Virus record (IMG/VR): IMGVR_UViG_3300021964_000015
Reading direction: 5' to 3' (one strand)
DNA: 64,000 nucleotides
Source: a virus
In this document: positions 47,047 to 62,514 of the stretch, piece after piece
How the letters are laid out: the number at the start of each line of letters is the position of its first letter
Position numbering within the stretch: the stretch's first letter is position 1
The notes under the pieces: generated by a model
The model's database searches: none
Told to the model about the DNA's origin: nothing
What the model saw: only the letters and a program-made list of their open reading frames with translations
Made by a program: the position numbers and the translations under genes

Positions 47047-47048
47047 GA

Positions 47049-47162: not shown

Positions 47163-47182
47163 GAAATTAAAGTTGTTTTGGA

Positions 47183-47210
47183 TAAGCAGTTTATCGTCAT
47201 GCTTAGGACG
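47183..47210 (-). ncRNA. Motif A pseudoknot, copy 1
   Basis: CGTC-CTAAGCAT-GACG-ATAAAC-TGCTTA. Confidence 0.6.
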
Positions 47211-47215
47211 CCTCG

Positions 47216-47482
47216 TCAGAGCTTGATGTCCTTGGCGGACAGTGCTAGCTTACCAGGCTCGTCAACCCTTGGTTCAACTATTTTGTAAAGAAGTGCTTCA
47301 AACAATTCACATTTCTTTTTCTTTGACATCTTGTCCCAACGCTTTAGATCTGGATCATTGTCATCCCAGTTCAGTTTAATTTCAATGCCATCACCATCTT
47401 CTTTGTCGGTGATCTCAGCAATGAGTTTATTGCTGGCAAGCAGAAGATTAAGTTCAGAAAGTTCCATTGGTTTGGTTGTCAT
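47216..47482 (-). CDS. Hypothetical protein
   Basis: ATGA-coupled to upstream gene. Confidence 0.6.
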   Translation of the reverse strand: MTTKPMELSELNLLLASNKLIAEITDKEDGDGIEIKLNWDDNDPDLKRWDKMSKKKKCELFEALLYKIVEPRVDEPGKLALSAKDIKL

Positions 47483-48423
47483 TGCTTTTTAACAACAGAT
47501 TGAAGTTGTGGAAGTGAGCGACCAGGGAATGGTACGTATCCCGCCTCCATCATATTGAAGAACAAATCCCATGCATGGTTTTGTGTGAAATGCTCATCTG
47601 GTTTGTAGTTACGCCAGTGGCTTACAGGTGCTTGAGCACCATATGTTGTGTAGAGCACCTTGAATAAACCATCAGATAGATGGTCAGAAGGCGGCTGGTA
47701 CCACCATGCAACACACTTACTTGGTGTGCCGTTAGGCGCTTGGTTACGTGCTTCGGTACGTTTGCATAGCATCTCACGGTACTTATTGAACCAGGACAGA
47801 TGGATGCACCATGGCTTGAAGCCTTCAATCTCCTGGGAGAAAGAAGAGATGTTATTAAGTTGTTGTTGATACGAACCACAAGAACACCATGGCTCACCAA
47901 AGATTGGCTTGACATCTTCAACAGTATCTAGGCTGCTGTTGAAATCAATTGGCATATCTTGTGCACGCAAACCATCTGGTGCAATTAGATGACCAAGGTC
48001 TGCTTGATCTGATTGCAATAGAGCAGTTACCTTTTGTACATCGTTCAGATGAATAAAACGATCTGCCCATGCAGCTTGCAATCTTGCGTTAGGCGTGAGG
48101 TGACCTAACGCATGGGAGTAGTACCATCCTTTAAAAAGAACATAAGCATTGTTATGCCATACACTAGGACCGCGATAGTTAGGACCAAGGTAAGAAAAGA
48201 AATCTTTTAAGCGATGAGTATAGCTGGTATATGCAACCTTGATGGGTTCTCTGTTGTATGTTTGCTGGCTACCATCACGACGTAAGATCAAACAATCTTC
48301 GCCTTGAAGATAGATGTCAGCAATGTCAGTGTCATCAAAATCATTGAAGGCACGACGTATGTTGGTACGTGTGTAAATAAATTTTTGCGCAGCATCAAGC
48401 TCGGTTACCTGTTGGTTTGACAT
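47479..48423 (-). CDS. SWIM zinc-finger-containing protein
   Basis: WCSCGSY...PWCIHL (CxC...CxH). Confidence 0.6.
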   Translation of the reverse strand: MSNQQVTELDAAQKFIYTRTNIRRAFNDFDDTDIADIYLQGEDCLILRRDGSQQTYNREPIKVAYTSYTHRLKDFFSYLGPNYRGPSVWHNNAYVLFKGWYYSHALGHLTPNARLQAAWADRFIHLNDVQKVTALLQSDQADLGHLIAPDGLRAQDMPIDFNSSLDTVEDVKPIFGEPWCSCGSYQQQLNNISSFSQEIEGFKPWCIHLSWFNKYREMLCKRTEARNQAPNGTPSKCVAWWYQPPSDHLSDGLFKVLYTTYGAQAPVSHWRNYKPDEHFTQNHAWDLFFNMMEAGYVPFPGRSLPQLQSVVKKQ

Positions 48424-48453
48424 GAGTTGGAGTTGGGTTGGGTTGAAGTTGGA

Positions 48454-48645
48454 TCAGTTGTCCAGCCAGTAGTCCTGCTGGAGCCGGTCTTCCTTAGCGC
48501 GTTGGTAGGCGCCTTTTGCCATTCTATACGATCCGTAGATCACTGCAGCCCAAGCAGCAGGAGAAGGCAACAGAAGAGCAATGCCAGCAGTAACCAAAGC
48601 TGTGGTACCACCAACCTTGACAGCAGCTTTTTGTTCGGGTTTCAT
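48454..48645 (-). CDS. Small membrane protein
   Basis: Hydrophobic hairpin TALVTAGIALLLPSPAAWAAVIYG. Confidence 0.55.
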   Translation of the reverse strand: MKPEQKAAVKVGGTTALVTAGIALLLPSPAAWAAVIYGSYRMAKGAYQRAKEDRLQQDYWLDN

Positions 48646-48727
48646 GTGAGTAATCCTTAACAGAAACAAAAGATTTAGTGTGAGTTTAATGCATTGGTTA
48701 GAATGTTTTGTAACAACTTAATACTTT

Positions 48728-48997
48728 ATGGAAGAGATAAAGTACGTGCCTCTAACCAAATTCCAAATTGAGCCAACGCTTGATGATAAGTTTTGGCTTG
48801 AGAAGATTAAACGTTCCATTGAAGAGTGTAATTCAGTTAGTGCTTTAAAAGAAATGGCGACCTTGCTTGCGCAGATCGCCACTCAACGTCAAGGTATAAT
48901 TCGTGGGTTAGTACAAGACATGTTTATCTTCAACAATATTTCTATTGATGGAGATGACTTGGCTAACCCAGAAGTTAAACCTAAATCAGAGGAATGA
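48728..48997 (+). CDS. Possible NblA-like protein
   Basis: PTLDDKFWLEKIKRSI...LKEMATLLAQIATQRQGIIRGLV two-helix pattern; own TAGAAT at 48699. Confidence 0.4.
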   Translation: MEEIKYVPLTKFQIEPTLDDKFWLEKIKRSIEECNSVSALKEMATLLAQIATQRQGIIRGLVQDMFIFNNISIDGDDLANPEVKPKSEE

Positions 48998-50002
48998 ATC
49001 TTCCCCTGTCATTTCATCACGTGCTGGAAGCACCTTCACATCAACTGTGTCGTTGCTACGTGAGACAGGAAGAATGTTCAATCCTTCTTTGATACCATAA
49101 GAACCATTGAGTTTCTTGGCATCTTGCTTTGCATGTTGATTGATGTAATCATCAAACAACTCTTGGAACTTCCAAGTAGATGCACGATCTTCATCTGGAA
49201 TTGAAAGATTATTCAACGATTCAATTGCAGCTTCTTGCGTTGAATAATCTGGAATCGAAAAGGATTCAATTGCACAGATCTCAACGTTATTTGCACCACG
49301 CATTTCATTTGCAAGCACAGGTGTAAACACTGTGGTTGCATAGAACTTTTCGTTGAATGCAAGTGGGATCTCAGAGTCCAGTGCTTTGCTTAAGCACTTA
49401 GACATCTCTTTCTCATAAAGCTTTACTTTATCTGATACATCAGTACCATTCAATCCTTTAAGTGTAAGCACAATAGGATTCTTGTGAGCACGCTTATTAT
49501 CCTTGGTGAGGATAAAGATCAGATACTTTGTACGTACACTGTACTTACGCTTGTACATCTCGCCTTTACTATTGGCAAGATCAGAAGCAACCTTATCATT
49601 ATCAAAGATTGCTTTTACTTCTTCATCTTCAAACGTACCAATCACTTGGCGCATACCAGTAGTTTCTTCCACCATCAAAGGTGAACGCAACAATACTTGA
49701 ATGCGAGGCTCAGTAAAATTCAATCCCTCTTCAATAGAAGTATTGGGAGCCATACCAAAGGTTTGCTTGTAATTCCAGATGACAGAACCTGGGGTAAAGT
49801 CATCTTCCGTTGCTGTCCATCCACAGACATCAAGATCTGATTTACGTACAAACCAACCACGTACTTTTGATTTATTCAGTGGTTGAATTGTTACCAAGTT
49901 CTGGTAACCAGAAATAAACTCTTTGCTTCCAAAAAGTTTAAATGAATCAAGGCTACGAGTAGCCAGTGCATCTTTCTTGGTTTTGGTCGGAGAAGAAGTC
50001 AT
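48986..50002 (-). CDS. Conserved hypothetical protein (possibly DUF5895-like)
   Basis: Long ORF next to SSB; RTKYLIFIL..DNK.AH..P.VL.LKG..G pattern; family call tentative. Confidence 0.5.
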   Translation of the reverse strand: MTSSPTKTKKDALATRSLDSFKLFGSKEFISGYQNLVTIQPLNKSKVRGWFVRKSDLDVCGWTATEDDFTPGSVIWNYKQTFGMAPNTSIEEGLNFTEPRIQVLLRSPLMVEETTGMRQVIGTFEDEEVKAIFDNDKVASDLANSKGEMYKRKYSVRTKYLIFILTKDNKRAHKNPIVLTLKGLNGTDVSDKVKLYEKEMSKCLSKALDSEIPLAFNEKFYATTVFTPVLANEMRGANNVEICAIESFSIPDYSTQEAAIESLNNLSIPDEDRASTWKFQELFDDYINQHAKQDAKKLNGSYGIKEGLNILPVSRSNDTVDVKVLPARDEMTGEDSFL

Positions 50003-50023
50003 GGTTTGTTCTTAGTGAAAAGT

Positions 50024-50050
50024 GGATGAGTTTAACGTCATCCCAGGACG
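50024..50050 (-). ncRNA. Motif A pseudoknot, copy 2
   Basis: CGTC-CTGGGAT-GACG-TTAAAC-TCATCC. Confidence 0.6.
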
Positions 50051-50071
50051 GGTACTTATTGTACCAAGAGA

Positions 50072-50893
50072 TCAGAAGGGTTCGTCCGATGCAAAGACAG
50101 GAGCTGTGGTGTATTGACCTGGGAGTTCAGGCAAGCCACCACCAGATGCTTCGTTCCATGCATCCTGGGAATCCTCAACCGTTTTGCCTCCCCATAGGCT
50201 AGCTACATTCCCTTCTGCAGCCACAGTTGTTTGTGAAACCACAGGTTTATCTTTGGACTCATCACGAGTCCGTACAATATTTACCTTATTGATTTGAATC
50301 TTGGTTGCTGTACGGCGCTCATTGGTTTGCTTATCATTCCATGCATCTGTTACAAGGCGACCACGAAGAGTCATCTCTGTTCCTTTCTTGGTCATGTTGC
50401 AGATAAGTTCTGCAAGATTCAAACGATCATTAGCATTATTGATTGCATAGAAATTAAATAGATCACACTGGTTTCTACCAGTGGAAACACTTAATGTTTG
50501 CGAGCAAATCATTGTGCCATCAGCAGTTGTCTTGAAAGCACGTGGATCTTCCTTATCAATATCTTTGATACAACGTCCTGCAAGAATTACATCATTGAAG
50601 ATCGGGAATGATTCAGTAACTTCTGCAAGAGAACCTGCATGTAAGGAGTGGGTCTTGGTCTGAACATCAAATCGTAAGGTGGCACCATGGATATAGATGA
50701 GGGAGTTCTGCTTGAGTCGCAGGAATCTTTCTGCTGCTTTGCCATAGACGTGATACTTGATTCGAGTTTCAGATTTGTTTTGATTTACCCTGGGAAGAAT
50801 TACTTCCGCACAGTAAGAAGAAGAAGTTGCAGATGTGTATACTTCCCGCGGTGTTTCAGCGAGAGATGCACAGACAAAAGCGCAGTTCATCAT
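50072..50893 (-). CDS. ssb: Single-stranded DNA-binding protein with two OB folds
   Basis: Second domain NDVILAGR...KKGTEMTLRGRLVTDAWNDKQTNERR; first domain VYGKAAE..LRLKQNSLIYIHG.L; acidic tail SDEPF. Confidence 0.75.
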   Translation of the reverse strand: MMNCAFVCASLAETPREVYTSATSSSYCAEVILPRVNQNKSETRIKYHVYGKAAERFLRLKQNSLIYIHGATLRFDVQTKTHSLHAGSLAEVTESFPIFNDVILAGRCIKDIDKEDPRAFKTTADGTMICSQTLSVSTGRNQCDLFNFYAINNANDRLNLAELICNMTKKGTEMTLRGRLVTDAWNDKQTNERRTATKIQINKVNIVRTRDESKDKPVVSQTTVAAEGNVASLWGGKTVEDSQDAWNEASGGGLPELPGQYTTAPVFASDEPF

Positions 50894-50913
50894 TGCGTAA
50901 AAGAGCAGTGTTA

Positions 50914-50940
50914 AAGCAGTTTAACGTCATACTTAGGACG
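50914..50940 (-). ncRNA. Motif A pseudoknot, copy 3
   Basis: CGTC-CTAAGTAT-GACG-TTAAAC-TGCTT (U-G wobble). Confidence 0.6.
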
Positions 50941-50945
50941 GGCAA

Positions 50946-52769
50946 TCAATGGGTTTCAGACCAGTTGGTCCCAACACGAGAATCACCTTCAATGTCGCAC
51001 TGGAATCCAAAGAACTCCTGTGCCTGTGGGAAAGCAAGCATTGCTTGTTCCCTGATTTGTTCTGTGTACTTGGGTGCACATACGAGTTGAATCTCGTCAT
51101 GCACCATTAAAACTTGTTCCCATCCATTGCCGTGCTCAAGACCAAGCACTTGTTTGATATTGTTATGTACATTAATGACAACTTGTTTCATTAAAATTGC
51201 ACCTGCTGATTGCAGGAGCACATTCAATCCCTTGAAAGCTGAGCGACAATAAAGAACGCGACGATCAAGACCAATGAGATAACCCCTGTGTGTAATGTTG
51301 TCATCAATTTTTTCCTTTAATTTTTTAAGAGCTGGTACACCTTGCATAAATGAATTGATTGCAGTTCTTCCTGCTTTACGCAGAACATCTTCATCCTTTT
51401 CATTCGGATCTACAATCGTTCCAGCTTTAAGGTGACCTGCACCATATAGAACAGCGTATAGTAAACGCTTGCTAATGTCCCTGGTAGCCACACCAAATCT
51501 TTCTTGATTATAAACATGAATATCAATATCAGGATTCGTTACAACACGCGCATATTCACCGCCATCATATAAGGCAAGATAACCTGCAAGGCAACGTAAC
51601 TCCAATGCCTTGGCATCAATACCAATCATGTCCCATCCTTGTGGCGCATGAAACAATGAACGACATTCCTTGCCATAAGCTGAATAACCCGCTGGCACCT
51701 GGCCCATGTTTGGGTACCGATGAGCGCAGCGACCAGTGACGCAGCCGTTAGTAACAACGTCACCGTGCATGCGACCGCTGTCATGATTAACCAGCTTGAG
51801 CCAAGCGTTGTTCCCATCAGCGATTTGACCAAGGCGTTTCTTGACGAGCATGTACTCTGCCAGAGGTTTTGCTTCTGGATAGGGGAGCTTTTCTAAAACT
51901 TCATCATCAAGGATTGGATTTCCTTTTTCAGTTGTTTTCTCTGGCTGCCATCCGTACTTTTGCTTAAGTCGATCAACAATCTGTTGACGAGATCCAGGAT
52001 TGAATTGTTCAGTTCGGATCTTTTCAAAAGGAACTCCTTTTACATAACCACGATTCTTGTTGTTTACCCTGGGGGTAAACCAAGTGTGGTGTTGAATAGG
52101 TGGAAATACCTCCTTTAATTCTGCTTCAAGTTTGCTTTGTTTTGTTCTGAGATCATCCACCAAATCAAGACATGCATCCACATCAAATGGAACACCTGCT
52201 CTAATTTGTTTATTAATTGCGAGCGCAAAATCATGTTCAACTTTAAGCGCAGATGGTGGATAGGATTGCTTGGCGATATGATCCCAAAGTTTTGTAGTAA
52301 CAGCAACGTCTTGTTTGCAGTATGCAAGCATTTCGCTGGAGTATTCAGAGAAATCTTTGAATTCGATTTTATGATCGGCCAATCGCCATCCCCATGTCTT
52401 AAGCGATGCGGATCCACGTAAGTTCGGTGGAACTTCCGGATATTGTTCAAGGTCAAGCTCGTAGAGTTTTTCCTTGGGCCAGATGAGTCGTGTGCAGATG
52501 AGTGTGTCAATGATCTCTGAAGTAGTGGTGAATGAGTAAAGTTTGTTTAGTACTGGGATGTCATAGAAGATGATGTTGTGACCAATCAAAACATCAGCGG
52601 TTGCCAGATGAGCAATAGCATCAGCAATGCAATCAGGCCCATAAGAAAAAGTTTGGTTGGATCCAATATCATGGATGACAATGCAATGTACTTTAGTTAC
52701 TTTGTCATAAAGTCCATCGCTTTCCAAATCAAAGACAAGATACTTTTCATTTGCGGAAGCGGGACTCAT
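50946..52769 (-). CDS. polA: Family A DNA polymerase, T7 gp5-like (3'-5' exo + pol); start may be 52808
   Basis: VFDLESDGL, GHNIIFYD, YCKQDV exo motifs; FNPGSRQQI; motif A GIDAKALELR; motif B KRLLYAVLYGAG; motif C VHDE. Confidence 0.95.
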   Translation of the reverse strand: MSPASANEKYLVFDLESDGLYDKVTKVHCIVIHDIGSNQTFSYGPDCIADAIAHLATADVLIGHNIIFYDIPVLNKLYSFTTTSEIIDTLICTRLIWPKEKLYELDLEQYPEVPPNLRGSASLKTWGWRLADHKIEFKDFSEYSSEMLAYCKQDVAVTTKLWDHIAKQSYPPSALKVEHDFALAINKQIRAGVPFDVDACLDLVDDLRTKQSKLEAELKEVFPPIQHHTWFTPRVNNKNRGYVKGVPFEKIRTEQFNPGSRQQIVDRLKQKYGWQPEKTTEKGNPILDDEVLEKLPYPEAKPLAEYMLVKKRLGQIADGNNAWLKLVNHDSGRMHGDVVTNGCVTGRCAHRYPNMGQVPAGYSAYGKECRSLFHAPQGWDMIGIDAKALELRCLAGYLALYDGGEYARVVTNPDIDIHVYNQERFGVATRDISKRLLYAVLYGAGHLKAGTIVDPNEKDEDVLRKAGRTAINSFMQGVPALKKLKEKIDDNITHRGYLIGLDRRVLYCRSAFKGLNVLLQSAGAILMKQVVINVHNNIKQVLGLEHGNGWEQVLMVHDEIQLVCAPKYTEQIREQAMLAFPQAQEFFGFQCDIEGDSRVGTNWSETH

Positions 52770-52980
52770 CTTGAATTGAGAGTTCTTTACTTGCAAGTTC
52801 ACTGTCATTGTTGTTAATCCAGGACAAGATTTGTTGCGCACCTGCGCGATAAGGATGCGAGAAAATCCTGTTCAATGCCACGTCAGATTCTAGTGGAATT
52901 AAATCAAATCGATTCGTTTCACTATTGGCAGTAATGGCATGTGGTGCATCATTCAGCCAACAAGCAATGACGTAACTCAT
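52747..52980 (-). CDS. Hypothetical protein
   Basis: ORF overlapping the polymerase start. Confidence 0.55.
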   Translation of the reverse strand: MSYVIACWLNDAPHAITANSETNRFDLIPLESDVALNRIFSHPYRAGAQQILSWINNNDSELASKELSIQDESRFRK

Positions 52981-52982
52981 AA

Positions 52983-53030
52983 ATCAGATGGAAGACGGTT
53001 GCATACTACCGAATTCCATCTGATGTGCAA
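52983..53030 (-). promoter_or_regulatory. Putative promoter inside an 11-bp inverted repeat
   Basis: ATCAGATGGAA...TTCCATCTGAT flanks TAGTAT (-10, 53008-53003); TTGCAC 16 nt upstream. Confidence 0.4.
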
Positions 53031-53042
53031 GTAAATCAGGCG

Positions 53043-53813
53043 TTATTTCATTTTGTTCTTGTTGTAACCAACAAACTTACCCGCCTTCTTGCGTGCACTG
53101 ATCGCTTTGCTTGCGTCAGAGCCAGCCCTCTGGGAGCCATGGACAAGCAATGCAAAGGGCTTATCACCCAGGCAATGGCTGTCATCATGGTCAATCTCAA
53201 GGCCAAGCTCAGCTGCTTGTTCTTCTGTGTAGACAACGTATGAGATACGTTGGAATACATCCTTATGGTTAGGGATGAGGTAATCAAGTGTCCCACCATG
53301 AGATGCAGTGAGCTTCATGTTGTCAGGAATCTCATCCTGCAAGTTGAGCCACATACCAAGTGACTTGGTGTAAGCATAGAACGTTTGGTATGGGCGCATC
53401 ATGGCAACCATTGCCCAAGCACGCATGTAGTTCTCTGTCCAGAAATCACCTGACTCATGGATGCGTACCAATTTTTTAGGTGCACACATGGTTAGTGATT
53501 CGTCAATGAGATCACGCAATGCATAGGCTTGTGCATCACCAGATTGATTGGCAATACATTCACGGATCAGATTCCAGTTATGCCAACGCAGGTTGCGTAC
53601 GTTGGGATACTTCTCTGATAATGCAGCAAAGCAACGAAACTCATACGCTGCTTCAACACCTGTGTACTGGGGCAGGTCACGAATCTTACCAGTATTTGGA
53701 TCAGCAAATGTTTTGCAGACACCAGCGTGAGGACAGGTGTAACCAGCAGGCAGAGAAAAGATAAGGCGATCGGTCAGCTTGCTGTTGCCGTTGGAGAACT
53801 TGAGAAATTGCAT
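53043..53813 (-). CDS. Gp88-like protein
   Basis: GNSKL...FSLPAGYTCPHAGVC...CFA, VRIHESGDF, FYAYTKS. Confidence 0.7.
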   Translation of the reverse strand: MQFLKFSNGNSKLTDRLIFSLPAGYTCPHAGVCKTFADPNTGKIRDLPQYTGVEAAYEFRCFAALSEKYPNVRNLRWHNWNLIRECIANQSGDAQAYALRDLIDESLTMCAPKKLVRIHESGDFWTENYMRAWAMVAMMRPYQTFYAYTKSLGMWLNLQDEIPDNMKLTASHGGTLDYLIPNHKDVFQRISYVVYTEEQAAELGLEIDHDDSHCLGDKPFALLVHGSQRAGSDASKAISARKKAGKFVGYNKNKMK

Positions 53814-53835
53814 GGTTGAAATTGAGTTGGAATAC

Positions 53836-53862
53836 GGATGAGTTTAACGTCATCCCAGGACG
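53836..53862 (-). ncRNA. Motif A pseudoknot, copy 4
   Basis: 27 nt identical to copy 2. Confidence 0.6.
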
Positions 53863-53880
53863 TAACGAGTAGAATGTAAC

Positions 53881-53983
53881 AGGACCGAAGAAGAGCTACG
53901 TCAGGTCCAGAGGGAACCGAAGTTTTTGTAGCTTCCTTCGGTTAGTAAACGAATGGCTCTGCGACGTGATTACCGTGGAGCCA
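53881..53983 (+). ncRNA. Candidate two-hairpin small RNA or leader
   Basis: Starts just after TAGAAT (53870-53875); ACCGAAG/CTTCGGT with inner AGCTAC/GTAGCT; then TGGCTCTGCG/CGTGGAGCCA. Confidence 0.4.
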
Positions 53984-54091
53984 CACCCTCTATCCATAAG
54001 ATTTACTTATGTAGAAGTTTGTGTTACAGCACGAACAGCTTCATATACATCAATGATCATATACTTTCAGTATCAATAGATACCAAATCAA

Positions 54092-54244
54092 ATGACATTG
54101 ACATACAGGGGCTGCTCTTACAACAAAGATCAACAAGTACAACAAGATAAAGCCTGGTGGAACCTAGCCCACCGTCCATGGCTCTGCTTGAAGTACCGTA
54201 ACGCTTGCTACTTTCCTTTTGTAACCGGAGGTCAGATCAAGTGA
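54092..54244 (+). CDS. DUF4278-like small protein
   Basis: Translated by hand: MTLTYRGCSYNKDQQVQQDKAWWNLAHRPWLCLKYRNACYFPFVTGGQIK. Confidence 0.65.
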   Translation: MTLTYRGCSYNKDQQVQQDKAWWNLAHRPWLCLKYRNACYFPFVTGGQIK

Positions 54245-54357
54245 ACCAGGCATTCATCATTTACTTGGTAAACAAAAAGAAAAAGATGACACGCTCAGAT
54301 GTTGAGTCCAAGCGTGCCATGAAAGAACTGAAGAAAGAATCAGTATCTACTTTTTAA
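54241..54357 (+). CDS. 38-aa basic peptide
   Basis: GTGA-coupled to the DUF4278-like gene; ends abutting the thyX stop. Confidence 0.45.
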   Translation: MNQAFIIYLVNKKKKMTRSDVESKRAMKELKKESVSTF

Positions 54358-54358
54358 T

Positions 54359-55024: not shown

Positions 55025-55030
55025 GTTCTT

Positions 55031-55333
55031 TTATTCAACAGAGCAACCATAGCCAGTTGCAGTCAACTGTTCAATAGCATCTGCAGGACAGATACGCATT
55101 TGTGCATGTTGCATTGGTGTTTTGAGATGATCCCATTGAATGATTAGGTACTTTTGCTTACGTCCATTCTTGTTTGGTTTGTTAACCATACCAATTACTG
55201 TGCCATATCTTTGGAAGATATTCTTCTTAATCCAATCCTTTGTTTCTTTCTTTACACCAAACATTGCGCGTTGCTTGGGGCGTTCAGCAACACGATCACC
55301 AATCTTGTAGATGTACTGGGAGTTGCTTGTCAT
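55031..55333 (-). CDS. Hypothetical SH3-like protein
   Basis: YKIGDRV...YGTVIG...IIQWD. Confidence 0.55.
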   Translation of the reverse strand: MTSNSQYIYKIGDRVAERPKQRAMFGVKKETKDWIKKNIFQRYGTVIGMVNKPNKNGRKQKYLIIQWDHLKTPMQHAQMRICPADAIEQLTATGYGCSVE

Positions 55334-55647
55334 TGGATGATACTGCGACGTTGTTTGTTAATGATTTTGCGAATGGAACCAGAGTTGCGTTTGTACTTCA
55401 AAGCGATTTGGCCACTGCTCAAACCAAGTGCATGCAACTCTCGTATCCCTTTGATCTCTTCTTCTGTGAAGGGTTGACCAGGAGTTTTGGGTGGTAGTTC
55501 ATGAACTTCAAGTGTGCGAAAGCGTGCATCGCAATCAAAACATTTGCAATACCTTTTGATAAGGTAAGGATTGATGTGATCAGTTGAAACAACCTTTGTG
55601 TTTTGACCATCACATTTGATGCATGGTCGTTTAAGTTTGTAAGGCAT
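55330..55647 (-). CDS. NrdR-like zinc ribbon fused to HTH
   Basis: CIKC....TKVVST......IKRYCKCFDCDARFRTLE then IRELHALGLSSGQIALKY. Confidence 0.7.
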   Translation of the reverse strand: MPYKLKRPCIKCDGQNTKVVSTDHINPYLIKRYCKCFDCDARFRTLEVHELPPKTPGQPFTEEEIKGIRELHALGLSSGQIALKYKRNSGSIRKIINKQRRSIIQ

Positions 55648-55967
55648 TAGAGAAGGCGGTTTGCAATCAGTACAAGAACTTGTTGTTGACCAAGGATCTG
55701 GAATGAATCTTCCAGTAGTTCCTTCCTCTTATCAGGAAGTTCATAGCAATCAAACATGATGTCTTGAAGAAGATCAAAGTCATCTGCTTTGCCAGTAATC
55801 TTTTCAATTACCAGGCCAGGCATTGCATCAATGATGCCTTCAATTAATACTTCTTTGATTGCAATCCATGCATCAGCTGGTGCTTCATCCAGGATTGTTT
55901 CAATAACTTGTTCATTTGCTAAGTTGTTTACATCTTGTTGGATAGTGGATTGATCTGATTCAGACAT
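55647..55967 (-). CDS. Hypothetical protein
   Basis: ATG 55967 in listed ORF; TAATG coupling downstream. Confidence 0.55.
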   Translation of the reverse strand: MSESDQSTIQQDVNNLANEQVIETILDEAPADAWIAIKEVLIEGIIDAMPGLVIEKITGKADDFDLLQDIMFDCYELPDKRKELLEDSFQILGQQQVLVLIANRLL

Positions 55968-55968
55968 G

Positions 55969-55993
55969 AAAGAAACCCCCGCAAAAGCGGGGG
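55969..55993 (-). terminator. Intrinsic terminator
   Basis: CCCCCGC-TTTT-GCGGGGG-TTTCTTT on the - strand. Confidence 0.65.
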
Positions 55994-56015
55994 ATAACAA
56001 ATGTGCAGGAGAAGT

Positions 56016-56378
56016 TTAAGCGCTTTGTGCTTGGGTGTCGATGATATTGTCACCAAGACCAGCATCACGTAACTTTTCCAGCATGGATACCATGATGGTT
56101 GCTTGCGCCTGAGTGCGATCTAGGAACTCGCTAGCACGCTCTGGAGAGATCGTATGGACCGAACCATTAGGTTCTACGTAGCGCCAGCTTCCATCGGGTT
56201 GTGGGTCCCCCTGGAGGGCAAGACGTTCGGAGTTATGGACATACCTGAACTCAACGTTGTGGTAGTCCTTAAGACCATCTTGTCCTGTCCATGTGGCACC
56301 AAGGTTGTACCGTGCATCCTGATCAGCGAATGCATGGAACTCAGGAACGAGATGCTTGAAAGCAGCGAAGATAGACAT
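56016..56378 (-). CDS. Hypothetical early protein
   Basis: Biased codons, C/A-rich leader. Confidence 0.65.
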   Translation of the reverse strand: MSIFAAFKHLVPEFHAFADQDARYNLGATWTGQDGLKDYHNVEFRYVHNSERLALQGDPQPDGSWRYVEPNGSVHTISPERASEFLDRTQAQATIMVSMLEKLRDAGLGDNIIDTQAQSA

Positions 56379-56403
56379 GATTGAAGTTGGAGTTGGGTTG
56401 GTA

Positions 56404-56433
56404 GCTGGGACTTACACCTTAAGGATGCCCAGC
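56404..56433 (-). ncRNA. Motif B bulged hairpin, copy 1
   Basis: GCTGGG-CATCC-TTAA-GGTG-TAAGT-CCCAGC. Confidence 0.6.
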
Positions 56434-56434
56434 A

Positions 56435-56935
56435 TTAAGTTACATATTGTGAATTCAAAATGTAATGCAAAGTCCCCTTTGAGCTTATCTTAAACTTTTC
56501 CATCAAAGCTTTATAGCCCAGCCCTTGTAAATGATCATCTTTAATTTGCTTAACTTGTTCATTGCTAAATTTTCTTATAGAACTAGATGCTTTTATTGCA
56601 TGCTGCAATCTGTCTTTAGAAGGCCGATCAAGCATATTGTCTTTGTTTGTTCCAATACAAATGTTTTCAAAAGAGTTATCCTTTTGATTGCCGTTTAAAT
56701 GTCTAACAACTATACCGGGTTCAAACAACTTATCTTGGTATTTTTCATAAGCAACTAAACGATGCAAAAATACTTTGATTGATTTGCGTTGTATTCTTAT
56801 ATTGAAATAAAAATAACCTGCTCTAGAAGATAATAATTTTAAAGGTTGCTTTTTGTGTAAACCTAGTACACAATTATCTCTTACTCGATAACCTTTTTCA
56901 TAAGCAAGAGTTAAAGCTGTTTGTGATTCGTTCAT
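56435..56935 (-). CDS. HNH homing endonuclease
   Basis: LHRLVA...VVRHLNGNQKDN...NI..GTNKDN..D; markedly AT-rich. Confidence 0.88.
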   Translation of the reverse strand: MNESQTALTLAYEKGYRVRDNCVLGLHKKQPLKLLSSRAGYFYFNIRIQRKSIKVFLHRLVAYEKYQDKLFEPGIVVRHLNGNQKDNSFENICIGTNKDNMLDRPSKDRLQHAIKASSSIRKFSNEQVKQIKDDHLQGLGYKALMEKFKISSKGTLHYILNSQYVT

Positions 56936-56951
56936 TTGCAAAATTAAAAAT

Positions 56952-57038
56952 TGGTGCAGACGGCGGGAGTCGAACCCGCAAGGGCAAAAGCCCGACGCAT
57001 TTTAAGTGCGTTACGTAGACCTATTCCGTCACGTCTGC
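56952..57038 (-). tRNA. trnL: tRNA-Leu (anticodon TAA), CCA encoded
   Basis: GCAGACG/CGTCTGC acceptor, ACGCA-CTTAAAA-TGCGT anticodon arm, long variable arm, GCGGG-TTCGACT-CCCGC, ACCA end. Confidence 0.95.
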
Positions 57039-57245
57039 ATCACTTGGGCTTACGTCCACATCAATTGATGTGGACTGCCAAGTGTGATCTTGGGGTAATG
57101 GTTCAGTACCATATTCCCAAGTATCGTAATCTTCCTCGTTACGTGGATCATCCTCAATCAAAATGTATTGAGGTGAATTGTCATCAATGTACTCACCAAG
57201 ATTAGCTAGTGCCATAGCAAGTAGCTGAGCATCAGTGTGTTCCAT
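57021..57245 (-). CDS. Hypothetical acidic protein
   Basis: Fills the gap; last 18 nt overlap the tRNA. Confidence 0.5.
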   Translation of the reverse strand: MEHTDAQLLAMALANLGEYIDDNSPQYILIEDDPRNEEDYDTWEYGTEPLPQDHTWQSTSIDVDVSPSDADVTE

Positions 57246-57335
57246 AGTTGATAAGGGCGCCCTTTAACGAGGATAGGACGCCCCAGCTGAAGATCAGCTA
57301 ACAGATACTAGCGGATCCAGAAAGGATGTCAAATG

Positions 57336-57578
57336 CTAGTAAGCATCGACAAGTTGCCATTGAGGATCGAGCTGATCAAGATAGCTGCAGAAGCTGTCTT
57401 CATCAAGAGGGATGGGATCCCCTGGATCAATTGCGATAGTAACTTCGCACAATGCTGGAGCCCACTCCTCAGGTTCGAAGTGAGTTGCGCGATAGAGGAG
57501 GCGCATCTCATCAACAATTGCTGTAACTTTGACATGGGTGTCAGATACGATTGTTTCTTCAATTGAAAGTACAGTCAT
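57336..57578 (-). CDS. Hypothetical protein
   Basis: TGATG-coupled to upstream ORF. Confidence 0.6.
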   Translation of the reverse strand: MTVLSIEETIVSDTHVKVTAIVDEMRLLYRATHFEPEEWAPALCEVTIAIDPGDPIPLDEDSFCSYLDQLDPQWQLVDAY

Positions 57579-57745
57579 CAGTCACACTCCACGAATTGAC
57601 AATTGGGTGAGATGTAGCAACGATACCTAGTCCAGGCACGAGCAGTTTCCCACTCACCCTGGAAGGTATCTTCTCTAACGATTGCTTTCTCTGCGCGTTT
57701 AACAGCGCAGGAAGCAAGATTGATACGATCAAACAGATTAAGCAT
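57578..57745 (-). CDS. 55-aa hypothetical protein
   Basis: Translated by hand: MLNLFDRINLASCAVKRAEK...FVECD; C/A-rich leader. Confidence 0.55.
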   Translation of the reverse strand: MLNLFDRINLASCAVKRAEKAIVREDTFQGEWETARAWTRYRCYISPNCQFVECD

Positions 57746-57771
57746 GATTGAAGTTGCAGTTGGGTTGAAAG

Positions 57772-57798
57772 CTGGGACTTACACCAAAGGATGCCCAG
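57772..57798 (-). ncRNA. Motif B, copy 2
   Basis: CTGGG-CATCC-TTT-GGTG-TAAGT-CCCAG. Confidence 0.6.
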
Positions 57799-57823
57799 TG
57801 CTTTAGATTCTCTTAATGTTTGG

Positions 57824-58024
57824 TTAGAACAACTTGATGTTCCGTTTGCTCAGGCCTGTGCCAGGAATACTAATTGATCCACGGACACCTGAGCCACGAG
57901 CATTAATAGTTAGTTGTAAAGGACCAAGCTTGATTGATTTGGAATACGATTGAACACCATGTTCTGTAACATTGAATCCAGCAATGGTCCTATCAAAGTT
58001 GATAGAGGATTTAGGTTTAGTCAT
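57824..58024 (-). CDS. DUF4236-like protein
   Basis: KSIKLGPLQLTIN..G....SISIPGTGLS. Confidence 0.65.
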   Translation of the reverse strand: MTKPKSSINFDRTIAGFNVTEHGVQSYSKSIKLGPLQLTINARGSGVRGSISIPGTGLSKRNIKLF

Positions 58025-58130
58025 GATTAAAGATTAGTTGAAGGTTGATTAAAGGTTAATTAAAGTAATTAACTAATACTAATAAAAGATTCCCCCCTGG
58101 TTCTCTTCCAGGGGGGTTTGGGGGGAAAGC

Positions 58131-58466
58131 TTACGACCAGGCGATACGCTTTTCCTCGACTGCTTTCTTATACATCTCATCCATTGTCATAGGTGGTTCA
58201 CTACCGTAACCAAGATCTGCATCACTTGGTTCGTAGTCCAGTTCATTCTCTAGCATTGGAATGATCTCATCATCAATCATTGCATACATACTTGGCGTGA
58301 GATATTGATCCATCTCATGCCTCTTGGATTCACGTGCAATGACATCTTTCAATAATGTCAAAGCTTGTTGAACGTAGTAGTACTCGTTCTTGACCCAGTT
58401 CACTTTAAGAACTGCGTCAGAGGGAACACCAGTGGGAGGCACTTCAGGAAAGCTTTGGTTGGTCAT
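58131..58466 (-). CDS. Hypothetical protein
   Basis: Packed ORF. Confidence 0.6.
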   Translation of the reverse strand: MTNQSFPEVPPTGVPSDAVLKVNWVKNEYYYVQQALTLLKDVIARESKRHEMDQYLTPSMYAMIDDEIIPMLENELDYEPSDADLGYGSEPPMTMDEMYKKAVEEKRIAWS

Positions 58467-58496
58467 GAGCTGTGTTGTGAAAGGTGTACGGTTGGT

Positions 58497-58545
58497 ATGG
58501 GACTTATACCACAGATGAGAATAGTTCTCAATAGTGGATGCCCAT
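58497..58545 (-). ncRNA. Motif B, copy 3 (Fur-box-like palindrome in loop)
   Basis: ATGGG-CATCCAC-TATTGAGAACTATTCTCATCT-GTGGTA-TAAGT-CCCAT. Confidence 0.6.
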
Positions 58546-58549
58546 GCAT

Positions 58550-58777
58550 TTACTCAGGCTTCTTTAAGATCCACCTGGTGTAATGCTCAGCAGTGCGATC
58601 GACTGCTACCAGTTTATGCTCCTCCAGTCGTTGGATAGCAATCATGTAATACTTCAACCTACTTGGGTTTGGAAGCATCGGGACATAACATGGTTCGTCA
58701 GGACGTTTCTTCATGTGATTTAAGTAATACATGTAGAGATTACGTTGATTGACAGTTAATCCAATTGGAGGTTGCAT
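58550..58777 (-). CDS. Small winged-helix-like protein
   Basis: LTVNQRNLY...AIQRLEEHKLVAV. Confidence 0.5.
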   Translation of the reverse strand: MQPPIGLTVNQRNLYMYYLNHMKKRPDEPCYVPMLPNPSRLKYYMIAIQRLEEHKLVAVDRTAEHYTRWILKKPE

Positions 58778-58793
58778 AAGTTCAGTTGATTAG

Positions 58794-59165
58794 TTAGATG
58801 AGTCCGAGCAACGATAGCCAGCTGTCTGGATGATCGGGTTCAACCTCATCATCACCTGGAGTAAAGCATACGCTATCCATTGTCCATTCCTCTATGTCTT
58901 CGTTGCACGGGATGTCGTACCATCCTTGGAGCGCATCCTTGTCTTCTTGCGAGTAGTTGCCTCCGGTTGGTTTCCAGTAGAGGCTAAGGGTTCCTTTGGT
59001 GCGGTACACTGATCCATTCTTGGGGTAGGTGTCAAGCTTTCCGAGGACAACTCCTTTGGGATCGAAGTTGATTTCAGCTTGGTACTGCTCAAGGCATTCG
59101 TCGCCTTCGAATGGTTCGTAACCAGTGATTGCTTTGGCGACTGCTTGGGTTTCTGGATGAAGCAT
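58794..59165 (-). CDS. Hypothetical protein
   Basis: C-terminal DSVC.TPG.DEVEPDHPDSWLSLLGLI. Confidence 0.65.
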   Translation of the reverse strand: MLHPETQAVAKAITGYEPFEGDECLEQYQAEINFDPKGVVLGKLDTYPKNGSVYRTKGTLSLYWKPTGGNYSQEDKDALQGWYDIPCNEDIEEWTMDSVCFTPGDDEVEPDHPDSWLSLLGLI

Positions 59166-59256
59166 GACAGTAGTTCCGTAATGATGAGTGAAGTGATTGC
59201 AATAAAAAGGATGACGATATCACCGTCATCCCAGCATTGTTTCCAAGATGATTGAT

Positions 59257-59532
59257 TCATTTGGTCTTCTCCCAATCTTCGCAACGCTTGGTGTAGTAGA
59301 TGTCAAAGTTTGGGTGAAGCTTACGACAGATATCTTCTGCTTGTAATGCAGTATCTGCCATGTAACCCAATGCATCATTCCTCATCTGGAGTGTGTCATA
59401 ACCGACACATACCCAATGGATTTCAGTAAGCTCTGCTTCACGCATTGCTTCTTCTAGTTCGAATGCATAATCTGCCATGGTATCCATGAGATCAGCATTG
59501 CGTTGTGCATCGATGAAGGTAGGGTCCTGCAT
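59257..59532 (-). CDS. Hypothetical protein
   Basis: ORF with C/A-rich leader. Confidence 0.6.
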   Translation of the reverse strand: MQDPTFIDAQRNADLMDTMADYAFELEEAMREAELTEIHWVCVGYDTLQMRNDALGYMADTALQAEDICRKLHPNFDIYYTKRCEDWEKTK

Positions 59533-59560
59533 GGTTTGAATTGAGGTAGGGTTTGGGAAG

Positions 59561-59613
59561 CACTAGGACTTACACCACAGATGAGAATAGTTCTCAATAG
59601 TGGATGCCTAGTG
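59561..59613 (-). ncRNA. Motif B, copy 4 (Fur-box-like palindrome in loop)
   Basis: CACTAGG-CATCCAC-TATTGAGAACTATTCTCATCT-GTGGTG-TAAGT-CCTAGTG. Confidence 0.6.
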
Positions 59614-59680
59614 TTTGCTGAAGCATTGGCATGTATTGGCAAATCTTACGTGCCAACCAATACTTCAGATATAACAGGGT

Positions 59681-60172
59681 TTAGATCGTAATATTATTCC
59701 ATGAAATACCACGATCAATATTGGATATGGAAGTGCTTGTCACTCCATAAATCTTAGCTAGTTCTTTGAAGCCTTCATTGCGAGTTGTATACTCATTCAT
59801 GAATGCTTGATCGGCTAATAGTTGTTTGATTTCACGCACCTCCTTACCTCCTAACTTGGCATTACCGTTGACATAATGCCTGGATCTAGCCATACGCTTC
59901 CTTAGGCTAATGTTTGGAGGATCTACCTTAACAGCTTTTGCCTGTGGTGTCGGCTGTTTCGGGGGTGTGGGGGAAGAGAACAAGTCGAGTAGATCAACCT
60001 TCTCAACAGGTTGCTTACTTTGATTACCAACTGATTTCAACAGTTGGAAACCTAGGGTAACTGATTGCCCATCCTTTGTAACTGAGATGGTCACCTTGTT
60101 ATCCCTGGTAATCACACTGACGTGATCTGGTTTTGAAACATCAACTTGACTGAGTGCTTCCATGGGATGCAT
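59681..60172 (-). CDS. Protein with C-terminal HTH
   Basis: NAKL....VREIK...ELAKIYGVTSTSISNI.RG.SW. Confidence 0.65.
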   Translation of the reverse strand: MHPMEALSQVDVSKPDHVSVITRDNKVTISVTKDGQSVTLGFQLLKSVGNQSKQPVEKVDLLDLFSSPTPPKQPTPQAKAVKVDPPNISLRKRMARSRHYVNGNAKLGGKEVREIKQLLADQAFMNEYTTRNEGFKELAKIYGVTSTSISNIDRGISWNNITI

Positions 60173-60188
60173 TAGGTGCGTTGAAATA

Positions 60189-60224
60189 ATACCTAGTACT
60201 CATCCAAAGACAAGTACTAGGTAT
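60189..60224. repeat. 12-bp perfect inverted repeat
   Basis: ATACCTAGTACT-N12-AGTACTAGGTAT, upstream of the HTH gene. Confidence 0.75.
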
Positions 60225-60247
60225 AGAGTCTGAGGTCAGGTCACACG

Positions 60248-60475
60248 CTACATATGTGGTGTGAACCTAGGATCAGCGAGGAGTTGTGCAATGGAACACG
60301 CATCCTCCTCTACTTCTTCCTTGGTGCATCCCTCCCATTCATCCGATTGATTCTCGATGACCTGGCAACCCAGGTCTTCGAGTTGACATGCGAACATACC
60401 AAAGCTTTGTGCTTCGCCATAGACATGCCAAATACCGGAACCGTAGTCAGAGATTAACGCTACGTGAATGCTCAT
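60248..60475 (-). CDS. Hypothetical protein
   Basis: ATG 60475 in listed ORF. Confidence 0.55.
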   Translation of the reverse strand: MSIHVALISDYGSGIWHVYGEAQSFGMFACQLEDLGCQVIENQSDEWEGCTKEEVEEDACSIAQLLADPRFTPHM

Positions 60476-60662
60476 GATGACAAGAAGTGTGTTGTGGGTT
60501 GGGATTGGTGATATCAATACCTAACAATGCAGGTACTGATAGTGCAGCAAGGATGATTGCAAGTGCTCCCACTGCAATATCATCCCATCGAGTCTTATTG
60601 GACTCGGGATAAGAATCAATGGTCACGAAGAGGTTCCTCCGCAGGCGTACGATCTGTTTCAT
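60447..60662 (-). CDS. Small membrane protein
   Basis: TM segment IAVGALAIILAALSVPALLGI. Confidence 0.55.
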   Translation of the reverse strand: MKQIVRLRRNLFVTIDSYPESNKTRWDDIAVGALAIILAALSVPALLGIDITNPNPQHTSCHHEHSRSVNL

Positions 60663-60680
60663 TGAGGTGATTTGGAATCC

Positions 60681-60717
60681 CTGGGACTTACACCACACAT
60701 ATTATGTGGATGCCCAG
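60681..60717 (-). ncRNA. Motif B, copy 5
   Basis: CTGGG-CATCCACAT-AATAT-GTGTGGTG-TAAGT-CCCAG. Confidence 0.6.
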
Positions 60718-60720
60718 TGA

Positions 60721-61083
60721 TTAGTTGATGAGGTAACGATATGCAAACAACATACCAATGTCATTCCTGATATCGTTAACTACCTTGTAATACTTCTGTC
60801 TGTTCTGGTACATGTAGATGCAACCTTCCCAGAACATCTGGATGATCAACACAATGAGTGCTACCAAGTGGATTGCTACCCACTTACAGTGTTGATGTAA
60901 ATACTGACGATAGAAGCTACCAATGGCATAACCTGCCTGGTATGTCTTCTTAATCATTGAAGCAATGATGTTCAAGCACCACAGCATCGCTGTGATGCTA
61001 AAGATTTCTCCACCTAGTGCATACAACTTACTTGCCAGTTGTACTGCTGTGTCGAGGTGGTGGATGAGAGTGAGATAATTCAT
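60721..61083 (-). CDS. Membrane protein
   Basis: Two hydrophobic segments. Confidence 0.55.
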   Translation of the reverse strand: MNYLTLIHHLDTAVQLASKLYALGGEIFSITAMLWCLNIIASMIKKTYQAGYAIGSFYRQYLHQHCKWVAIHLVALIVLIIQMFWEGCIYMYQNRQKYYKVVNDIRNDIGMLFAYRYLIN

Positions 61084-61173
61084 GGTTCTCCATGTGAATT
61101 GATTTGGTTGATGCAGGATGTGAATCCTGCAGAAAACCCACTCACTTACGTAAGTAGGGTTAAGTGCAGGAAT

Positions 61174-61437
61174 CTAGTGGATAAGAGATTGGATGTATTC
61201 CATCTCCATGATGATGCCGTAGTTGTAGTAGTCCTCCATCTCCTGGTGAAGTTCTTTGGCACCAGTAGGCAAGCCTTCCATTAATGTACGAGTGTCAACG
61301 GCTATCCACTCGTATGGGCCATCAAAGTTAGGTGTTGCTATTAGGCACCACTTCTCGAAATGGATTTGATTCTTACTGCCGTACCATGTGACACGATACG
61401 TTTTCTCAGCCAAGGGTTGATAGATGAGGGGCTCCAT
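61174..61437 (-). CDS. Hypothetical early protein
   Basis: ATG 61437 (MEPLIYQP). Confidence 0.55.
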   Translation of the reverse strand: MEPLIYQPLAEKTYRVTWYGSKNQIHFEKWCLIATPNFDGPYEWIAVDTRTLMEGLPTGAKELHQEMEDYYNYGIIMEMEYIQSLIH

Positions 61438-61451
61438 GATCTTTAGTTGAA

Positions 61452-61520
61452 TAGATGCCACGGGATTGTGGCAATAACTGGGCAGGGGATTGCACCCTGC
61501 CTCCCGCTTTAACGGATCAG
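61452..61520 (-). ncRNA. Motif C tRNA-like junction plus hairpin, copy 1
   Basis: CTG-AT-CCGT-TAAA-GCGG-GA-GGCAGGG-TGCAATC-CCCTGCC-CAG then TGCCAC-AATCCC-GTGGCA. Confidence 0.5.
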
Positions 61521-61723
61521 TTGATGAAATCTTCAGGATCCATGAGGTAAAGAAAACACATAGCTGTGTAGATCTTATGCTCATCCCAAGCTTCCGCTTC
61601 GGGATGAAGCCTGATCACCTCCTGGAACTGGTTAACAAACCATTGAGCATCGGCACCGTACACAGGTACGGAACCAAGCTCATCGTTTGCCATAACCTTG
61701 TTAGCGATTTCGAGTAGTGTCAT
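61517..61723 (-). CDS. Hypothetical early protein
   Basis: ATG 61723 (MTLLEIAN). Confidence 0.55.
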   Translation of the reverse strand: MTLLEIANKVMANDELGSVPVYGADAQWFVNQFQEVIRLHPEAEAWDEHKIYTAMCFLYLMDPEDFIN

Positions 61724-61735
61724 GATGGTGTAAAG

Positions 61736-61804
61736 TAGATGCCACGGGATTGTGGCAATACCTGACCAGGGGATTTGATCCCCCGGCATCACGCTTGTGG
61801 TCAG
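61736..61804 (-). ncRNA. Motif C, copy 2
   Basis: CTGAC-CAC-AAGC-GTG-ATG-CCGGGGG-ATCAAAT-CCCCTGG-TCAG then a 25-bp block identical to copy 1. Confidence 0.5.
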
Positions 61805-61947
61805 ATGAAATCGTAGTTGTCTTCGTTGCCCATGTAATTAATCAGTTCATCAAATAAATACGTCAGTTGAGAATCATCAACTTCACGTACAAGATCTGCA
61901 AACTGAAGCATGAGCTGTTCCAAACGATTAGCTTGGTCGATGTTCAT
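61801..61947 (-). CDS. 48-aa acidic protein, first gene of the leftward early unit
   Basis: Translated by hand: MNIDQANRLEQLMLQFADLVREVDDSQLTYLFDELINYMGNEDNYDFI. Confidence 0.55.
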   Translation of the reverse strand: MNIDQANRLEQLMLQFADLVREVDDSQLTYLFDELINYMGNEDNYDFI

Positions 61948-61969
61948 TGGTGAAATGCGATTGAATTGT

Positions 61970-61994
61970 GCTACGTTTAACGTCCAGCTCGACG
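61970..61994 (-). ncRNA. Motif A pseudoknot, copy 5 (diverged)
   Basis: CGTC-GAGCTG-GACG-TTAAAC-GTAGC. Confidence 0.5.
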
Positions 61995-62478: not shown

Positions 62479-62514
62479 CTTTAACTAAGTTTTAATTAAG
62501 TTCTAATTAAACTC

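Follow-up and report, generated by a model that had tools for sequence, protein, structure and literature searches.

Five copies of an RNA pseudoknot (the 'knot' below) of about 28 nucleotides (nt) lie on the minus strand of the virus record IMGVR_UViG_3300021964_000015 from IMG/VR, of which a 64,000-nt stretch was analysed (the window; Table 1). The DNA belongs to the S-EIVl lineage of cyanophages: its sole megablast match is Synechococcus phage S-EIVl, with agreeing gene order, and at orthologous sites in cultured S-EIVl the element is present six times, including before the ssb, GP88 and DUF5895 homologues. An earlier account of the same DNA, prepared from its letters without database searches (the sequence-only reading), had reported the five copies and offered three hypotheses for them, namely a translational operator bound by a phage protein, a block to 5' exonucleases, and a single-stranded DNA signal.

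Five copies ahead of early and replication genes

The motif GACGWTAAAC occurs exactly five times in the window, always on the minus strand and at the sites first reported, where 0.16 occurrences are expected and where none of 100 shuffles of the window reached five; requiring in addition a CGTC partner 5-9 nt upstream retains all five matches and lowers the expectation to 0.00. Read along the minus strand, a copy consists of CGUC, a loop of 6-8 nt, GACG, the linker (U/A)UAAAC and a tail complementary to the loop, a complementarity that holds in all five. The helix formed by loop and tail, stem 2 (S2), comes in three sequence types, with copies 2 and 4 identical and copies 1 and 3 set apart by one U-G wobble; such variety in one window is thin evidence of covariation, which becomes solid only with the 91-133 related phage copies considered below. 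A covariance model run with its filters off found no further or degenerate copies in the window, and weaker 'CGUCCUGA' matches were rejected as extra copies, being located inside coding sequence with the remainder of the motif absent.

The distance from the end of each copy to the next start codon is 20, 21, 20, 22 and 22 nt for copies 1 to 5, in agreement with the 20-22 nt given earlier. On the other side, copy 1 begins 5 nt past the stop codon of an open reading frame (ORF) of 88 amino acids (aa; 47216-47482), copy 2 begins 21 nt past the stop codon of the single-strand DNA-binding protein (SSB) gene, and copy 3 occupies the gap between DNA polymerase A, 5 nt past its stop, and ssb. Copy 5 lies within the leader of the first minus-strand ORF; its loop of 6 nt and the extra base before its tail define a subclass that five other contigs likewise carry ahead of the first early gene. 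Copies 2 to 5 precede the DUF5895 gene (48986), ssb, the GP88-family gene and the 48-aa first ORF; in the Gp157 unit of the sequence-only reading, copy 1 directly precedes a 37-aa hydrophobic ORF, after which comes the Gp157-family gene. DNA polymerase A and ThyX are encoded in the same minus-strand block and neither is preceded by a copy.

Table 1. Knots and neighbouring genes in the window; positions count from the first letter of the 64-kb stretch
Feature	Position	Strand	Remarks
Pseudoknot copy 1	47183-47210	-	S1 CGUC/GACG, linker AUAAAC, S2 of 6 bp; 42.6 bits
Pseudoknot copy 2	50024-50050	-	7-nt loop, S2 sequence unlike copy 1; 28.4 bits
Pseudoknot copy 3	50914-50940	-	46.2 bits
Pseudoknot copy 4	53836-53862	-	S2 identical to copy 2; upstream of GP88-family gene; 27.1 bits
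Pseudoknot copy 5	61970-61994	-	6-nt-loop subclass; S2 GCUG/YAGC after one extra G
Gp157-family gene	46327-47046	-	PHROG name Mu Gam-like; likely start ATG at 47046
37-aa hydrophobic ORF	47049-47162	-	downstream of copy 1
DUF5895 gene	48986-50002	-	downstream of copy 2
SSB gene	50072-50893	-	downstream of copy 3
DNA polymerase A gene	50946-52841	-	no copy in front; stop 5 nt before copy 3
GP88-family gene	53043-53813	-	downstream of copy 4
tRNA-Leu (anticodon UAA)	56952-57038	-	long variable arm; within early-gene block
48-aa ORF	61801-61947	-	first gene of minus-strand block; downstream of copy 5

A family with two covarying helices

Scanning viral contigs with the exact pattern gave at least 116 loci, some with 3-6 copies, and the five copies of the window are members of a large family. 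In nearly every copy the tail complements its own loop, and does so with many different sequences. A gap-free alignment of 91 distinct viral copies was used to compare the two-helix model with partners slid out of register and with 500 shuffles: 94.6% of S2 cells are paired, against at most 52% with partners slid, 88 cells show changes on both sides, and none of the 500 shuffles matches the observed pairing or covariation. As the first search pattern had fixed stem 1 (S1), a further model was built on S2 only and searched against 60 loci, where it recovered 133 copies. Among these the outer S1 pair is CG in 104, AU in five, UA in four, UG in three and GC in two, with a mismatch in five; the three inner S1 pairs, including the C-G that closes the loop, are invariant in 124 distinct copies in which the outer pair covaries or mismatches. 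Even the inner pairs are found flipped in distant phages, as CGAC/GUCG in those of Staphylococcus aureus, GAC/GUC in a crAss-like phage and UCUC/GAGA in Vibrio phages. The element is thus a compact H-type pseudoknot of about 28 nt, with compensatory changes in support of both stems, and the minimal covarying pseudoknot first proposed from five copies is upheld by the wider family.

Its anatomy can be set out as S1, of 4 bp (CGUC/GACG); a first loop (L1) of C, sometimes with an added U; S2, of 4-6 bp and free sequence; a one-nt bulge at the junction; and a linker loop (L3), UUAAAC. The AAAC of the linker is invariant and the U that follows is at least 90% conserved, with variation in the linker confined to its first two positions (U/C/A/G, then U/A), whilst S2 opens with an invariant A-U pair succeeded by four covarying pairs. 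A search of Rfam 15 over positions 46500-62500 returned only the tRNA-Leu, whether the gathering score or E<=10 was applied, and no STAXI, preQ1, pistol or other family at the sites; the resemblance to STAXI suggested by the sequence-only reading was not sustained.

Position between stop and start codons

Distances to ribosome sites were taken from 220 unique copies with loop-tail pairing. Between the preceding stop codon and the first base of S1 there is a hard floor at 5 nt, where 43 copies lie, with 17 at 6 nt, 11 at 7 nt and three below the floor. Downstream, the ATG most often lies 25-28 nt from AAAC, across leaders with a G content of 6%. In phages of hosts that use Shine-Dalgarno (SD) sequences the knot either abuts the SD or sits further up, about 15 to more than 60 nt from the start codon, and the SD is never overlapped. 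From -1 frameshift signals, 5 nt is established as the classical minimum spacing at which a downstream pseudoknot stays clear of the mRNA entrance of a ribosome with the preceding codon in its A site; taken with the start-codon distance, the 5-nt floor would place the knot just outside both ribosome footprints, and the simplest reading is that it has been selected to stay folded while packed between them. Stimulation of readthrough or frameshifting was considered and discarded, since the knot follows stop codons of every kind, TAA being the commonest, and no slippery site is present. Compensatory changes, a fixed strand and tight spacing to stops and starts together point to an element that acts at the level of RNA.

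Genes downstream and phages that carry the knot

When copies are grouped by the ORF that follows them, the largest clusters are a PcfJ-like protein (25 copies) and head scaffolding protein (21), followed by SSB and a peptide of 37-41 aa (10 each), GP88 (nine) and DUF5895 (seven). The knot thus recurs ahead of genes whose products are needed in abundance: that for head scaffolding protein in three or four phage groups unrelated to one another, and that for SSB in ten contigs. In more than 80 records of S. aureus Phietavirus (among them phiETA, phiNM4, 80, 96, 55 and 29), and likewise in Geobacillus phage D6E, the knot stands between the portal/minor-head and scaffold/major-capsid genes, and such sites are boundaries between low- and high-demand proteins on one transcript. 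S. aureus phage StauST398-3 (L238:1501-1526) has its knot upstream of the Phietavirus head-scaffolding gene. GenBank records B122, B166, B236 and phiJB carry a feature labelled 'promoter' exactly over the knot.

The 37-aa ORF of the window belongs to the peptide cluster, a conserved family in ten contigs (37-41 aa, starting MFE...) whose gene always comes after a knot and directly before a Gp157-family gene; in the window only 2 nt separate its stop codon from the Gp157 ATG, a closeness suggestive of coupled translation. Copies can also precede non-coding cargo, given those upstream of tRNA genes: one lies 3 nt upstream of a pseudo-tRNA in Nostoc phage NMeng1 (L246:401-506) and another about 180 nt upstream of tRNA-Gln in Mycobacterium phage Labelle (L240:1501-1787). 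The tRNA-Leu of the window has no adjoining knot, in contrast to these tRNAs of other phages.

Probing an isolate phage collection with three BLAST queries revealed the knot in phages of cyanobacteria (Synechococcus, Nostoc, Microcystis), of Bacillota (Staphylococcus, Streptococcus, Lactobacillus/Latilactobacillus, Bacillus, Geobacillus, Moorella), of Actinomycetota (Mycobacterium, Corynebacterium, Arthrobacter, Cellulosimicrobium), and of Paracoccus; phages of Escherichia, Klebsiella, Salmonella and Pseudomonas gave no match to the same probes. Siphoviruses, myoviruses, podoviruses and crAss-like phages are all represented. One microvirus, Sigmofec virus UA08Rod_4626 (Microviridae, with a 6-kb single-stranded DNA genome; L249:301-327), has a copy with intact loop-tail pairing about 20 nt past the stop codon of a peptidase gene, and the element is consequently not confined to tailed phages. 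A match in Stenotrophomonas phage BUCT704 (L248:301-320) comprises S1 and part of the linker with no S2, and was not counted; this degenerate copy also sits upstream of a scaffolding-protein gene and may represent a remnant that has decayed in a host lineage devoid of RNase J.

Cellular genomes show a corresponding bias. A single weak match, within coding sequence, was found among 5,426 complete E. coli genomes, and in a species-level genome scan 33 of 120 pattern matches had the pseudoknot, with Pseudomonadota contributing none of these 33 against 23 of the 87 chance matches (p = 2.4e-4). About two thirds of the genome matches are chance occurrences in coding DNA without loop-tail pairing, and these served only as a taxonomic control. 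Four out of the five host genomes with the motif, a Synechococcus metagenome-assembled genome (MAG) among the four, have an RNase J above the curated cut-off; in the control genomes of E. coli and B. thetaiotaomicron none was found at E<=1e-30. Pseudomonadota mostly lack RNase J, with some exceptions.

In the window itself, a scan for promoters and terminators revealed nothing promoter-like that keeps a constant distance from the copies on their upstream side, and one 'terminator-like' call (50043-50024) was discarded, being the S2 of copy 2. A strong terminator-like hairpin (62482-62454, minus strand) directly precedes the region's best promoter-like site (62440-62413), which lies about 420 nt ahead of copy 5, and thyX is followed by a second strong hairpin of this type (54286-54320, minus strand), about 420 nt ahead of copy 4; the sites at 62413-62482 and 54286-54320 may delimit transcription units.

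Correspondence with the coremin core

The coremin motif (xrRNA-C) and its Watson-Crick variant (xrRNA-WCC), exoribonuclease-resistant RNAs (xrRNAs), occur in beny-, cucumo- and other eukaryotic RNA viruses (PMC6546385, PMC10520033, PMC10321173). Their published criteria are a first hairpin (hp1) of 3-4 bp, the spacer UUAAACU, a loop of YGAD or YGNNAD and a second hairpin (hp2) directly 3'. By mutagenesis, the 4-bp hairpin has a dispensable outer pair, inner positions that must pair and a closing C-G that cannot be swapped, and the first two U's of the spacer are tolerant of change where A16-A20 are essential. In the Watson-Crick variants the loop pairs with bases past UUAAA in the register 8-18, 7-19 and 6-20, and an A7-U19 pair has been proposed in the wild type (PMC6546385, PMC10520033, PMC10321173).

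The letters of the phage core are those of the coremin core (GUCC-loop-GACGUUAAACU): the CGUC/GACG stem, the UUAAAC linker and pairing from loop to tail. Phages vary where coremin tolerates change, at the outer pair of S1 and the first two bases of the linker, and what never varies in phages (AAAC-U, the loop-closing C-G and the loop A) is indispensable to coremin. The constant A-U pair of the phages corresponds to pair 7-19 in the published Watson-Crick model, to which the phage S2 adds four or five pairs; the base after the linker U, mostly G in phages and A in coremin, differs because it pairs with the loop. The core of the phage family is that of the Xrn1-resistant coremin RNA in its Watson-Crick form. 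One contig carries both: at L074:1472-1537 and again at 2540-2605 (minus strand) a pseudoknot-type copy is succeeded, about 13 nt later, by a classical coremin-type copy with a 6-nt YGNNAD loop, a UUAAACUAU spacer and then a 6-bp hairpin.

A proposed block to 5'-3' decay

The function to which we give the most weight, at a probability of roughly 45%, is that the knot blocks 5'-3' RNA decay and so stabilises the cistron downstream. Nuclease resistance and an effect on expression are what we infer from the observed fold, family, coremin-type constraints, spacing, gene context and host bias. The copies are transcribed within the minus-strand early and replication mRNAs, each folding into its knot, and would remain folded between a ribosome terminating upstream and another initiating downstream. 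There it would act as a mechanical roadblock to 5'->3' enzymes, in the cyanobacterial host most likely RNase J, such that decay arriving from upstream would halt at the knot and leave a stable, translatable message for the next gene. The genes served in this way would be those for SSB, DUF5895 and GP88, the Gp157 unit and the first early ORF, allowing proteins needed in abundance to out-express neighbours on the same transcript, such as DNA polymerase. That the phages share no obvious common protein points to a target in the host machinery, and of the three hypotheses originally offered the exonuclease block is the best, since the core is that of coremin letter for letter. Somewhat more tentatively, the coremin pseudoknot may be a cross-domain viral module, with which DNA phages of many bacterial phyla would stop RNase J as plant and fungal RNA viruses stop Xrn1.

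Several observations weigh against a decay block. Compact pseudoknots of the beet western yellows virus (BWYV) type do not stall Xrn1 (PMC6546385, PMC10520033, PMC10321173), and a pseudoknot alone is therefore insufficient for resistance. In coremin and its Watson-Crick variant alike, hp2 is reported to be strictly required for resistance to Xrn1 (PMC6546385, PMC10520033, PMC10321173); no conserved hp2 follows S2 in the phages, whose leaders are G-poor and unstructured, and one is present only in the coremin-type copy of contig L074. It is plausible that a 6-bp S2 replaces the short stem 2 of coremin stacked on hp2. The phage loop, which begins with an invariant C and ends A-U/A/C, is 7-8 nt long and has U (rarely C) at its second position, unlike the G of the coremin consensus, and that consensus (YGAD or YGNNAD) fits one of the tandem L074 copies. 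The host survey is limited by BLAST and confounded by phylogeny. Among 61 Bacteroidota genomes RNase J was found in none, although crAss-like phages and a Bacteroidota MAG do have copies; a phage of OM43 (Methylophilales) also has copies, and Vibrio phages have a diverged form. On account of the Bacteroidota, OM43 and Vibrio phage copies, a strict model in which RNase J is the only target is rejected as universal.

The main rival is a device of translation, in which the knot would serve as a ribosome barrier or insulator, keep ribosomes from sliding onward after termination, uncouple cistrons, or offer a landing or stand-by platform that aids initiation without an SD. Coremin has been found in vitro to block scanning ribosomes and to stimulate -1 frameshifting (PMC6546385, PMC10520033, PMC10321173), and the sharp 5-nt minimum past stop codons, a spacer shared with -1 frameshift signals, together with the 25-28 nt to the ATG across G-poor leaders devoid of SD sequences, would suit such a role. 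In phages whose hosts use SD sequences (S. aureus, D6E, Labelle), however, the start codon may lie anywhere between about 15 and more than 60 nt away, some copies stand before tRNA genes rather than ORFs, and the need to stay folded beside ribosomes explains the spacing equally well; we regard a translation device as unlikely. A lesser chance still is given to an endonucleolytic processing or boundary element, cut by RNase E, RNase III, RNase P/Z or a phage nuclease so as to divide the polycistronic RNA into units, with protection of the 5' end as a secondary effect. Placement at cistron boundaries, and before tRNAs in NMeng1 and Labelle, would be expected of it, but the flanks vary freely with no conserved single-stranded cleavage motif, and the hosts differ greatly in their sets of RNases.

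An operator bound by a phage protein, whether the phage's own SSB, in the manner of T4 gp32, or a RegA-like repressor, would account for the strictness of S1, L1 and L3 beside a free S2, as in a protein-binding site, and for a copy upstream of ssb with an unstructured leader after the knot. Most copies, however, precede genes for scaffold, PcfJ-like, GP88, DUF5895 or HNH proteins; siphoviruses, myoviruses, podoviruses, crAss-like phages and a microvirus have no evident protein in common; and in RNA viruses the same core works free of protein, leaving this first of the earlier hypotheses quite improbable. Least credible of all is a signal in the DNA, either a phage promoter or a single-stranded replication signal of the STAXI kind. 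High conservation of the 10-mer, and the 'promoter' features already mentioned in S. aureus phage records, could be read in its favour. Against it stand the compensatory changes in two helices, a strand that is always that of the genes, spacing that follows the stop and start codons, presence in hosts whose promoters are of unrelated types, and, in the window, the lack of both a consistent promoter-like site upstream and a STAXI match.

Exoribonuclease-resistant RNAs have so far been described only in eukaryotic RNA viruses, and in the literature searched there was no report of such an RNA from a phage, nor of one that resists a bacterial enzyme. If a decay block is indeed the function of the knot, it would be the first such RNA of prokaryotic viruses and a portable means for operons to set protein levels through mRNA survival; were RNase J the enzyme blocked, it would add a new layer of gene dosage to phage operons, with SSB and scaffold set apart from polymerase, portal and terminase. 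It would also raise the question of convergence or transfer between DNA phages and plant RNA viruses, and supply a 28-nt part for stabilising mRNA in Gram-positive bacteria and cyanobacteria. For the coremin fold, which is still unsolved, the family would then provide hundreds of natural covarying sequences, and these already support the proposed loop-spacer register. The contributions made here are the 5-nt floor past stop codons, the mapping of phage variation on coremin mutagenesis, the recurrence of the knot before scaffold and ssb genes, the survey of RNase J and hosts with its exceptions, and the naming of cultured systems, among which Phietavirus prophages of S. aureus, phages of Corynebacterium and Mycobacterium, and cyanophage S-EIVl are hosts and phages in which the proposal is testable.

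Comparison with known systems

Small pseudoknots near ssb-type genes are also known in STAXI (RF01728) and in the operator of T4 gene 32. Unlike the former, the phage knot has no Rfam match at its sites; unlike the latter, it is not specific to ssb, four of the five copies in the window preceding other genes. In size (about 28 nt) and build, with a short L1 in the groove of S2 and an A-rich L3 along S1, it resembles the luteoviral -1 frameshift pseudoknots typified by BWYV, and like them it follows an A-site codon after a spacer of 5-9 nt; it differs in lacking a slippery site and in that the codon upstream is a stop of any kind.

Class 3 xrRNAs of plant viruses (the dianthovirus, polerovirus and ST9a type) measure 44-54 nt and comprise P1/P2, a conserved J1/2 and an L2B T-loop (PMC6299227, PMC7668246, PMC12397905). 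In these RNAs, as in the phage element, the apical loop pairs with the 3' flank, forming a pseudoknot that in class 3 is essential for resistance, and some of them are likewise intergenic, at the 5' ends of coding subgenomic RNAs (PMC6299227, PMC7668246, PMC12397905). The phage element, by contrast, fits a single 4-bp stem and a pseudoknot into 28 nt, which leaves no room for P2 or L2B, and has no sequence similarity to class 3.

Bacteria stabilise the 5' ends of their own mRNAs with 5'-terminal stem-loops, 'stab-SD' elements and, in Bacillus subtilis, stalled ribosomes as obstacles to RNase J1. The job proposed for the phage knot is the same, to stop 5'-3' decay above a ribosome-binding site and raise expression of the downstream cistron; what sets it apart from a simple hairpin or a bound ribosome is that it is a self-contained pseudoknot shared with eukaryotic viruses.

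With coremin the phage element has in common the hairpin stem, the linker UUAAAC-U, the loop-tail register, an L1 that starts with a pyrimidine and, for some copies, an intergenic position. It departs from coremin in being encoded by double-stranded DNA phages (and one of single-stranded DNA) and placed in bacterial mRNAs, in an S2 of 4-6 Watson-Crick pairs against 0-3, and in its presumed target, RNase J and not Xrn1. The paired copies of contig L074, finally, form a tandem array that recalls the tandem xrRNAs of flaviviruses.

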